DNA from: a virus
Taxonomy: Duplodnaviria > Heunggongvirae > Uroviricota > Caudoviricetes
Length of the DNA: 19,040 nucleotides
Direction: 5' to 3' (one strand)
Virus record (IMG/VR): IMGVR_UViG_2526164604_000026
Location: 1-19,040 of that record
A program made the position numbers. Shown piece after piece: positions 12,001 to 15,000 of this stretch. How positions within the stretch are numbered: position 1 is the stretch's first letter; every line of letters begins with the position of its first letter.

Positions 12001-15000
12001 AAGCCGCCAGTGTGGGCAAAGTGCACAAAAGGCGTGTATCCGTCTTACTGGGAGGAATGGAAAAAAGTCAGGGAGGTGGTAAAAGTTGCCTGTCCGGAGT
12101 GTGGAGGGAAGGGGGAGGTTTCCACCGCCTGTAAAGATTTTCGTGGGCGCGGTGTTGCCATTCATCGTGAAGAGTCGGTAAAACGTGGTATGCCTGTTAT
12201 CAGAGACTGCCAGCGTTGTGGTGGTCGTGGCTATGAAAGATTACCTTCAACGGAGGCATTTAATGCCATATGTAATGTAACCGATGCCATATCTCTTGAT
12301 ACATGGAAAAAAACAGTTAAACGTTTTTACGATACGCTGGTGGTGCAGTTTGATATTGAAGAAGCATGGGCAGAACAACAACTGAAAAAGGTGACCAGAT
12401 AGCTTTGTTGATTTTTCCCGAATCTGTGGTAAATTTGCCCTAACGATGGGCGTTTTATGCCTGACGTTAGAAGATTTTTTACACCCGTCGCCAGGCGGGT
12501 TTTTTTATGACTGAAATCACGCCAGTACAGTAAACGCGCTGGTGGTTGTGAATACCGGTCTTTCTGCTTGCTGGCTTTTTCGACAAGAGTTATTGGTGTG
12601 TCACGTTAACCGGAAAAAGGAAAGTTTGAGAAACGCGATCTGGCACAGGCGGTGATTAACGCCGCATACCTGGTGGCCTGTGCAGATGGTGAATGTGAGG
12701 CTTCCTAGAAAGCGAAGATCGAACAGGTACTGCGTAATCAGCCAGCGCTGTCCGCGTTTACGTCAGAAATTAATGCGATTAGCGCAACCATTATCGGTCA
12801 GCTGGATACGAACTTTAAAACTGGTCGTCGTGCGGCGTTACGTGAGATCGAGGATGTGAAACACGATACGCGTGAAGCGGAAGATGTGCTGGATGTGGCG
12901 GTGGCCATTGCGGAGGCAGACGGCGAAATTGAGCCGGAAGAGCGCAAGGTGCTGGAAGAGATTGCCGGTGTTCTGGGTCTTCGTCTGGAGAATTACCTGT
13001 GACGGTAAAACTGCGTCTGGCTGTGGCTGCACTCCTGCTGTTTCTGGTGGTGATGGTGGATTTCACCAGCAGAATCATGTCGGTGCTGGCGGATGGGGTG
13101 CTGGTCTGCGGCATTGTGGTATTGCTGTGGCCGGTGATAAAAAGAAACAGCCTGCATAATGCTTGATTTTTTTGTTTACTGTTTATTAAAAATACTACTG
13201 CATGGTGAATCCCCCTGTGCGGAGGGGCAATCAGCAACCAGGTATATGGGATAATCGCGGATTCAGGTGCTGGTACTGAATTCACCGGGAGGCACCCGGC
13301 ACCATGCTTTGCCACAAAAGTGTTATTTCTGTTTTTCTCAAACTATCATCGTTATCCCTTTATTTCCGGCTGCGCATGGCGCGGCCTTTTTTTTACGACC
13401 AGCCACTGGCAGATGGTCATCCTGTGATTTGATTCCGGTTCCGGCTTTTTAACTCTGTTCCTGTACACGGGAGAAATTCGATGTCGATTAAACATTATGA
13501 TGTTGTCAGGGCGGCGTCGCCGTCAGATCTTGCGGAAAAGCTGACACACAAACTGAAAGAGGGCTGGCAGCCGTTTGGTAGTCCTGTGGCCATAACCCCT
13601 TATACCCTGATGCAGGCGATTGCCGCGGAGGGGGATGTGACCACGCCAGTGGTTGTGCCCGGCACGGGGGATGGTGGCTATCCGGGAGTGGTCACCACGG
13701 AGCCAGATTATTACTACGTTATTCCACTGGCCGGGCAGTCGAACGGCATGGCTTACGGTGAGGGGCTTCCTCTGCCGCAGACATATGACCGTCCTGACCC
13801 GCGTATAAAGCAACTGGCTCGTCGCAGCACAGTGACGCCGGATGGCGCTCCCTGTAAATATAACGACATTATTCCGGCAGACCACTGTCTGCATGATGTA
13901 CAGGACATGAGCCGTCTTAACCATCCGAAAGCTGACCTGTCGAAAGGTCAGTACGGAACCGTGGGGCAGGGGCTGCATATTGCCAAAAAGCTGCTGCCGT
14001 TTATACCGGCGAATGCGGGTATTCTTCTGGTTCCGTGCTGCCGTGGTGGTTCAGCTTTCACCACCGGGGCAGATGGAACATACAGTGACGTGACCGGTGC
14101 CTCAGAGAGTTCTACCCGCTGGGGTGTGGGCAGGCCGCTGTATAAGGATCTCATCGGTCGTACAAAAGCCGCGCTGGCAAAGAACCCGAAAAATGTGCTG
14201 CTTGCCGTGGTGTGGATGCAGGGGGAATTTGACTTTGACGGAACGCCAGCAAATCACACAGCCCGTTTTACAGAAGTAGTGGAACAATATCGTACGGACC
14301 TTGCAGATATGGTGGGACAGTGCGCTGGTGGTTCTGCTGACGGTGTTCCCTGGATATGTGGAGACACAACTTATTTCTGGAAGCAGAAGAGCGAATCCAC
14401 TTACCAGACGGTGTACGGCAGTTACAAAAACAAAACGGAAAAGAATATTCACTTTGTGCCGTTCATGACCGATGAGAACGGAGCAAATGTCCCGACGAAC
14501 AAACCGGAAGAAGACCCGGATATTCCGGCATCAGGATATTACGGTGCGGCCTCCCGGACGTCGGCAAACTGGACGTCAGCAGACCGTGCGAGCCATTTCA
14601 GCTCATGGGCACGCAGGGGGATTATTTCTGACCGTCTTGCCTCAGCGATTCTTCTCCATGCAGGACGGACGGCTGAACTGGTGGGTGGGGAACAGGTTGT
14701 GATGCCGCCGGATGAGAAGCCGTCACCGGACACACCATCAACACCGTCAACGGACGGGAAATCAGTGACAACGCTGCTTTATTACCGTGCAACAGAGTCA
14801 GGTGGTTTACTGAATCCGCAGGGATGGGGAGCTGAAGGAGGGCGTGCATTGGTAGTTGATGATGCAGGTGCTGCAGGAGGTAAGGCGCTGAGGTGGACCA
14901 AACAGACAGGAAGTTCCTCGTGGTTTATGCAGCATGATGCCGGTAATGGCGCAGACCTGCTGGAGAAGGGCGGGCTTATCAGTTGTCGTTTTAAAGTTGA

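Follow-up and report, generated by a model that had tools for sequence, protein, structure and literature searches.

What is carried in the cargo slot between the late antiterminator gene and the lysis genes of the Caudoviricetes record IMGVR_UViG_2526164604_000026, and can it still be made into a protein? The window, by which we mean the whole stretch of DNA analysed (positions 1 to 19,040 of that record, 19,040 nucleotides), very probably represents an Escherichia coli O157:H7 lambdoid prophage whose late-operon cargo slot holds a doubly inactivated tciA gene, a member of the TerB family, together with an orphaned, intact tciB gene. A preliminary description of the sequence had proposed either a TerB-family moron that was acquired and then inactivated or an intact gene hidden by a sequencing or assembly error.

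The tciA/terB pseudogene remnant spans positions 12610-13002 on the + strand and is damaged both at its 5' end and at codon 46. A 130-residue stretch of its frame, in which the in-frame TAG is read as Glu, matches the Pfam TerB family (PF05099) over profile positions 2-109 of 118, with an E-value of 1.7e-12 and 48.1 bits against a cut-off of 24.4. The frame translates as ...VSR*PEKGKFEKRDLAQAVINAAYLVACADGECEAS*KAKIEQVLRNQ...AEADGEIEPEERKVLEEIAGVLGLRLENYL*, and two ADGExE...E motifs are visible in it, in line with the two TerB repeat motifs that the preliminary description had called clear. The natural stop codon TGA is located at 13000-13002, and the frame is interrupted upstream by TAA at 12607-12609 and by the amber codon TAG at 12706-12708 in the context ECEAS*KAK. 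The intact E. coli prophage homologue is an open reading frame (ORF) of 143 residues that starts with ML/FGIFKKKTRRA..EIKKFEKRDLAQ. Alignment of the remnant to intact genes begins only at about 12612-12621, with about 14-17 N-terminal codons and the ATG gone; together with the in-frame TAA, this bears out the earlier suspicion that the N-terminus and the start codon are missing. The earliest start-type codon in this frame is GTG at 12652, 18 codons ahead of TAG. The supposition that TAG stands in place of Glu proves correct as well, because the corresponding codon is GAG or GAA in 82 of the 82 intact copies aligned from IMG/VR and from the GTDB species-representative genomes. Consistently, the RefSeq annotation pipeline (PGAP) gives window 12640-13002 the label 'tellurite resistance TerB family protein, pseudo, internal stop' and names the next gene 'DUF3927 family protein'. 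The window copy is a pseudogene member of the TerB family: with no start, no N-terminus and TAG at 12706, it does not form a complete translatable ORF of that family. Because the remnant has no start codon and two in-frame stops, no TerB-domain protein would be produced from it.

Could the apparent lesions be errors of sequencing or assembly that mask an intact TerB gene, with GAG at 12706 and an intact 5' end? Counts of k-mers and gene copies over 5,426 complete E. coli genomes refute this explanation because the TAG allele and the junction of the 5' deletion recur in hundreds of them. The exact 45-mer around TAG occurs at 962 places in 577 independently sequenced genomes, and a 47-mer that spans the deletion junction has 638 occurrences in 502 genomes. 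In total, TerB-like copies (window 12640-13002) are present at 2,728 places in 805 genomes, with a median of 4 per genome; the TAG allele accounts for about 35% of these tciA-like copies (962/2,728) and is found in 72% of the carrier genomes, with backgrounds that include O157:H7, O55:H7, O145:H28, O111 and O45:H2. IMG/VR prophage contigs contribute 88 more exact TAG matches, and many O157 genomes, produced by different laboratories on different platforms, agree with the window at 100% identity over the entire 484-bp stretch. In each of the records inspected, PGAP marks this internal stop. An error at this site thus has virtually no probability.

The 5' lesion is a large deletion. In BLAST comparisons with an undeleted locus (L003), window 12405-12623 aligns to L003 357-575, the segment immediately downstream of the antiterminator gene Q, and window 12621-13010 aligns to L003 2501-2890. 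Therefore, 1,927 bp are missing from the window. The junction (12606-12622, + strand) lies in purine-rich microhomology, CGGAAA...AAAG, and joins the ribosome-binding region of a lost 65-residue ORF to about codon 15-17 of tciA/terB. The genes lost in the ~1.93-kb deletion are this 65-residue ORF, a DNA methyltransferase gene, three transfer RNA (tRNA) genes and the first ~14-17 tciA codons including the ATG. Undeleted loci have the order Q, the late promoter and terminator pR'/tR', the 65-residue ORF, the DNA methyltransferase gene, tRNA-Ile, tRNA-Arg, tRNA-Arg, the TerB gene, the DUF3927 gene, a small RNA (sRNA) gene or iraM, and an esterase gene. In some relatives, such as the deer E. coli strain 48 (locus L004, 3345-3680), the anti-adaptor gene iraM lies on the opposite strand between tciB and the esterase gene, and hence the tciB-to-esterase sub-slot is itself variable.

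The order in which the two lesions arose can be read from sister copies. Among the 88 TAG copies in IMG/VR, 85 have enough upstream sequence for this comparison. About 51 of the 85 carry the deletion junction when minor sequence variants of it are counted, 30 keep the full 5' end and have a +1 frameshift in the A-run at codons 7-8, and four have TAG as their sole 5' lesion. A shared TAG combined with differing second hits points to the nonsense mutation as the first lesion. The partner gene tciB decays alongside the dead tciA in sister copies: it is truncated or frameshifted in 24 of 78 TAG copies, compared with about 4 of 77 copies that stand beside an intact tciA (p = 4e-5). Intact paralogues are abundant. 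The commonest intact tciA allele type is found 1,374 times across 578 genomes, and an intact TerB-family and DUF3927 gene pair is annotated in another lambdoid prophage of the O157:H7 strain 86-24, which has a DUF1133-type Q and retains its tRNAs. These intact copies elsewhere in O157:H7 therefore suggest that the loss of one copy is buffered.

The second gene of the cassette is in a different condition from the first. The tciB homologue (12999-13166, + strand) encodes 55 residues from a GTG start and matches Pfam DUF3927 (E 4.3e-17) and PHROG 1470, 'TciB-like' (E 4e-30). Its start overlaps the tciA stop as GTGA (12999-13002), and its hydropathy profile has two hydrophobic segments; the small ORF with two transmembrane segments coupled to the upstream stop, as it had been described beforehand, is thus confirmed. 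The window tciB ORF is intact and encodes the same protein as the allele most often seen next to an intact tciA. At T13099 (tciB codon 34), the window has GTG (Val), where FDAARGOS_293 and other best-matching O157 genomes read GGG (Gly). This is the sole difference from FDAARGOS_293 in 1,078 bp; it leaves TAG unaffected, and both variants are found among the IMG/VR copies.

Intact tciA and tciB genes travel together. The intact TciA homologue belongs to PHROG 632, 'tellurite resistance' (E 8.8e-69), and tblastn searches of phage genomes with the intact protein return 130 records. Of the relatives that have a name, the nearest are the tciA genes of phage P1 and of phage JLK-2012, the latter in the same slot and with 95% identity. 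The next gene after tciA is tciB in 79 of 80 viral contigs, and the pairing is kept in Franconibacter, Pantoea, Serratia, Pectobacterium and Oceanisphaera, down to ~44% TciA identity. The conserved pairing therefore marks a real two-gene module. Judged by homology, the intact module would combine a helical, cytoplasmic TerB domain, which bears paired acidic motifs, with a small membrane protein partner. Literature searches found no functional study of tciA/tciB or of DUF3927. The PADLOC-DB v2 defence models gave a marginal PDC-S48 match for TciA only (E 0.0025, 14.9 bits, 35 residues) and none for TciB. The match to the NCBIfam DjlA model stayed below threshold, at 28.6 bits where 162 are required; it is explained by the TerB-like domain common to both and does not amount to membership in that family.

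A further question is whether the locus still makes a functional protein, either by amber suppression or read-through or as a mini-TerB translated from an internal GTG. The TAG allele is common and free of extra stops downstream. A 48-residue GTG ORF (12856-13002, + strand) retains the second TerB motif and matches Pfam TerB with an E-value of 9.8e-8, and it has been annotated as a gene in enough cases to give rise to PHROG 3920. However, this piece is half a domain (profile positions 70-109 of 118), and a GAGG sequence lies only ~2-3 nt from its GTG. The 48 positions of PHROG 3920, a family of unknown function, coincide exactly with residues 96-143 of intact TciA, and the family is probably an annotation artefact that arose from mis-called fragments of dead tciA; the 48-residue ORF itself is most likely a pseudogene by-product and not a gene. 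Suppression fares no better. Apart from the GTG at 12652, there is no in-frame start ahead of TAG on a gene whose N-terminus is gone. Suppressor anticodons were found in 0 of 280 tRNAs from 202 related loci, and the window itself has no tRNA. Moreover, the independent second lesions of TAG copies, frameshift or deletion, form a pattern of decay rather than of maintenance, and the partner tciB is decaying too. Residual protein function is therefore very improbable, and the reading of a doubly inactivated tciA stands.

The DNA immediately downstream of tciB raises the possibility that the coding remnant is irrelevant and that the sequence is kept for an RNA or cis-acting role, as a spacer or leader of the late transcript or as part of the precursor of an STnc100-type sRNA, or because tciB works alone. 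An STnc100-family sRNA gene is located at 13174-13394 on the + strand. Its match to Rfam RF02076 (13174-13340) covers the full model 1-206 with 101.6 bits against a gathering score of 47 (E 1.6e-21) and begins 8 nt past the tciB stop. STnc100 sRNAs are present in 11 copies in EDL933 and are transcribed there (PMC5331693). Members of this family, which is related to PasD, are found immediately upstream of the esterase gene in Stx-type prophages (bioRxiv 10.64898/2026.05.13.724894) and 75 nt downstream of stx2B in Stx2 phages (PMC12370729). Because Stx phages carry the sRNA right after stx2B without any tciA sequence, the sRNA needs no tciA leader. In the analyses run, the remnant has no conservation or structure beyond its coding homology. 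The intactness of the window tciB and its identity to the commonest allele beside intact tciA would fit a gene that works alone, whereas the disruption of tciB in 31% of TAG copies counts against strong selection for tciB by itself. Retention for an RNA role or for tciB is accordingly unlikely, though less so than residual function of the protein. A permissive Rfam search of 12300-13600 found no AgvB, AsxR or Esr41, and its extra matches to asX2, suhB and anti-hemB were at chance level (E 0.026-0.65).

How, then, would a dead tciA be expressed? A lambda-like late promoter pR' is located at 12408-12447 on the + strand and was recognised by a column-for-column alignment with lambda pR' (TTGACT ... 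GGTAAATTTGaCtcAACGATGGG); the generic promoter scan missed it (8/12 consensus matches). Its elements are a -35 hexamer TTGATT (12408-12413), an extended -10 element TGgTAAATT (12427-12435) and a -10-like AACGAT (12442-12447). The -10 sequence TAAATT is conserved, and the AACGATGGG element stands at lambda spacing. We take AACGAT to be a sigma70 pause signal, as in lambda pR'. A tR'-like intrinsic terminator follows at 12483-12507 (+ strand), with a hairpin at 12483-12500 and a U7 tract in the terminator scan and with a 3' end that aligns with lambda tR' (CGGGaTTTTTTAT). RNA folding of 12437-12510 gives two hairpins with -26 kcal/mol (z = -3.7, 0 of 200 shuffles as stable), of which the second is the terminator, and the pR' leader transcript ended by this terminator is ~65-70 nt long. 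Because the remnant lies downstream of a lambda-like pR' and tR', it would belong to the Q-dependent late transcript. The short leader (12408-12507) resembles a miniature lambda 6S RNA. It also resembles the StxS sRNA, which Stx phages produce when transcription from pR' terminates early.

The slot itself is bounded by genes on one strand. Upstream, a Q-type late antiterminator of 273 residues (11581-12402, + strand) matches Pfam PF03589 (Antiterm, E 7.8e-49) and is annotated by PGAP as 'antitermination protein'. Downstream, a NanS-p-type sialate O-acetylesterase of 645 residues (13481-15418, + strand; Pfam DUF1737, SASA and DUF6645; PGAP 'SASA family carbohydrate esterase') forms the other boundary. 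The gene order, with the cargo region between Q and the esterase and lysis genes, and the presence of intact homologues in the same slot uphold the assignment of the cassette to the Q-to-lysis cargo position, which is the stx position in Stx phages. The tciA-tciB pair holds exactly the stx slot of Stx phages. The preliminary description had also stated that terminators flank the cassette. Hairpins are indeed present on both sides: the terminator scan returned four sites against a shuffle mean of 1.5, including 12483-12500 and 13368-13386, both with T-runs. They are better assigned to other units than the cassette: the left one is tR', and the right one, the hairpin at 13368-13386 with T8, is probably the terminator of the STnc100-family sRNA. 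The classical definition of a moron, reportedly that of Juhala et al. in 2000, has its own promoter and a terminator flanking the cassette. In the window, the generic promoter scan detected no cassette-specific promoter, with no sigma70-like promoter on the + strand at 12508-12999 and none across 12300-13600 either.

Taken together, these data are consistent with the following scheme. The ancestral locus would have had the order Q, pR'-tR', 65-residue ORF, methyltransferase, tRNA-Ile/Arg/Arg, tciA (143 residues), translationally coupled tciB (54-55 residues), sRNA, nanS-p and lysis genes. A GAG-to-TAG nonsense mutation at tciA codon 46 would have come first, and a microhomology-mediated deletion of ~1.93 kb, from the 65-residue ORF through about the first 15 tciA codons, would have come second. 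The remnant would still be transcribed within the Q-antiterminated late transcript. As a result, tciB would be left without its upstream coupling partner, intact in the window and decaying in sister copies. The loss may have been tolerated through several intact tciA-tciB paralogues in other O157:H7 prophages. The parts of the earlier proposal that concern acquisition and inactivation stand, and 'stress resistance' is a label by homology only.

Several observations weigh against parts of this scheme. First, the intact tciB is preceded at 8 nt by GGAG, a plausible ribosome-binding site, and the module might therefore still be expressed in part. Second, we infer that the window copy is transcribed but untranslated. 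Third, gene conversion that spreads TAG among prophage copies could mimic an order in which TAG comes first and the deletion second. Fourth, the pattern of variants speaks softly on the dead allele. Distinct nonsynonymous and synonymous variants stand at 20:119 in intact copies, which shows that intact tciA is under strong purifying selection, and at 11:26 in TAG copies; the odds ratio of 2.5 (Fisher p = 0.049) gives a weak indication of relaxed constraint in TAG alleles, and recombination with intact alleles may blur the signal. Finally, TAG copies have zero extra stop codons in codons 18-143, and therefore the remnant is young and not heavily decayed.

The spread of the amber allele invites another thought. 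It may reflect selection to inactivate surplus tciA-tciB copies in poly-lysogenic Shiga toxin-producing E. coli, or a stand-alone role of orphan tciB, and we consider this a slim chance. Surplus copies could be selected against if, for example, the membrane module is toxic at raised dosage or they interfere with the chromosomal ter island. If surplus-copy selection or a stand-alone role of tciB were true, tciA-tciB would be the first cargo of a late operon to show evidence of counter-selection that depends on copy number. Under the preferred reading, the window copy is an ordinary pseudogene and carries little weight as a discovery. Much of it is already known: RefSeq flags the pseudogene, the TerB and P1 TciA-TciB families are catalogued, and the slot and its sRNAs are in the literature. 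It does provide a clean case of stepwise decay in a multi-copy prophage gene, with a common nonsense mutation, independent second lesions and a decaying partner. The intact lambdoid tciA-tciB pair is under strong purifying selection in the stx slot, and the role of that pair is a worthwhile question that the dead copy cannot answer.

Comparison with known systems places the module more precisely. The remnant is 40% identical to P1 TciA over 126 residues (E 1e-24), and the window DUF3927 ORF is 53% identical to P1 TciB over 51 residues (E 6e-13). The P1 tciA-tciB(-tciC) cluster has the same gene order, its genes abut or overlap, tRNA genes are nearby, and the same PHROGs, 632 and 1470, are represented. 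However, a 5' deletion and an amber codon have made the window tciA a pseudogene, and the P1 pair lies between the dmt methyltransferase and ban helicase genes whereas the window pair lies in a lambdoid late operon. No credible P1 TciC homologue was found in the window (tblastn best E 0.32); tciC is not universal, since JLK-2012 has tciA and tciB only. In the P1 genome annotation (AF234172), tci stands for 'tellurite or colicin resistance or inhibition of cell division' and was named by homology.

The closest counterparts are the intact lambdoid pairs of phage JLK-2012 (NC_049942) and the O157:H7 86-24 prophage, with 95-98% protein identity. Their slot is the same, in the order Q, tRNAs, tciA, tciB, yjhS/nanS-p esterase gene, holin and endolysin. 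In contrast to the window copy, which has TAG and lacks the start, the tRNAs and the methyltransferase gene, their tciA is full-length (143 residues) with GAG at codon 46, and the tRNAs are kept. Similarity to TerB of the terZABCDEF system is distant. The intact homologue matches the solved Klebsiella pneumoniae TerB (2JXU chain A) over residues 13-137 (phmmer E 4e-8); both belong to Pfam PF05099, and the phage protein has duplicated acidic ADG...E motifs. The phage partner differs in being a DUF3927 mini-membrane protein, and a tellurite role of the phage protein is a label by homology. In the corresponding EDL933 region, which is identical, the annotation lists no ter genes (terZ, terA, terC, terD or terE) for 13 kb to the left or right. 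Like other morons of Stx and lambdoid phages, the cassette lies in the slot between Q, pR' and the tRNAs on one side and the STnc100-type sRNA and nanS-p on the other (PMC4104026; PMC12370729), and in the Sakai prophages, Sp4 among them, this site is where clusters of Hfq-bound sRNAs are found (PMC4104026). By analogy with Stx phage cargo, expression of the window cargo would be expected to depend on Q antitermination. Unlike that cargo, it is unrelated to Shiga toxin and inactive.

The surrounding sequence points to the source prophage. Hundreds of complete E. coli O157:H7 chromosomes match the 1,078-bp region at 99.9-100% identity. In EDL933, the counterpart prophage adjoins potC, and the EDL933 integrase gene corresponds to window 1-1119. 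We take this O157:H7 prophage beside potC to be probably CP-933M, or Sp4 in Sakai. RefSeq records other pseudogenes in the EDL933 copy (L011): a truncated 3'-5' exonuclease pseudogene at L011 1823-2224, which corresponds to window ~1419-1820, and a frameshifted portal pseudogene from L011 25336 onward. Because of these further pseudogenes, the tciA remnant is part of a generally decaying prophage.

Some minor features complete the picture. The Q protein encoded at 11581-12402 is unusually long, with two PF03589 stretches, and appears from its sequence to be QuuQ-like rather than lambda-type. It also has a weak similarity to the DnaJ-type CXXCXGXG zinc finger (E 1.7e-5), which is under the cut-off. 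A tRNA search of the whole window found none. Three further ORFs across the region, one of 166 residues on the minus strand (12815-13315) and two of 95 residues (12872-13159) and 61 residues (13267-13452) on the plus strand, have no Pfam match and are treated as shadow ORFs. The sok antisense RNA of a hok/sok type I toxin-antitoxin locus is located at window 9377-9551 on the + strand (Rfam RF01794, 116.9 bits), and hokD is annotated beside it in the identical EDL933 region.

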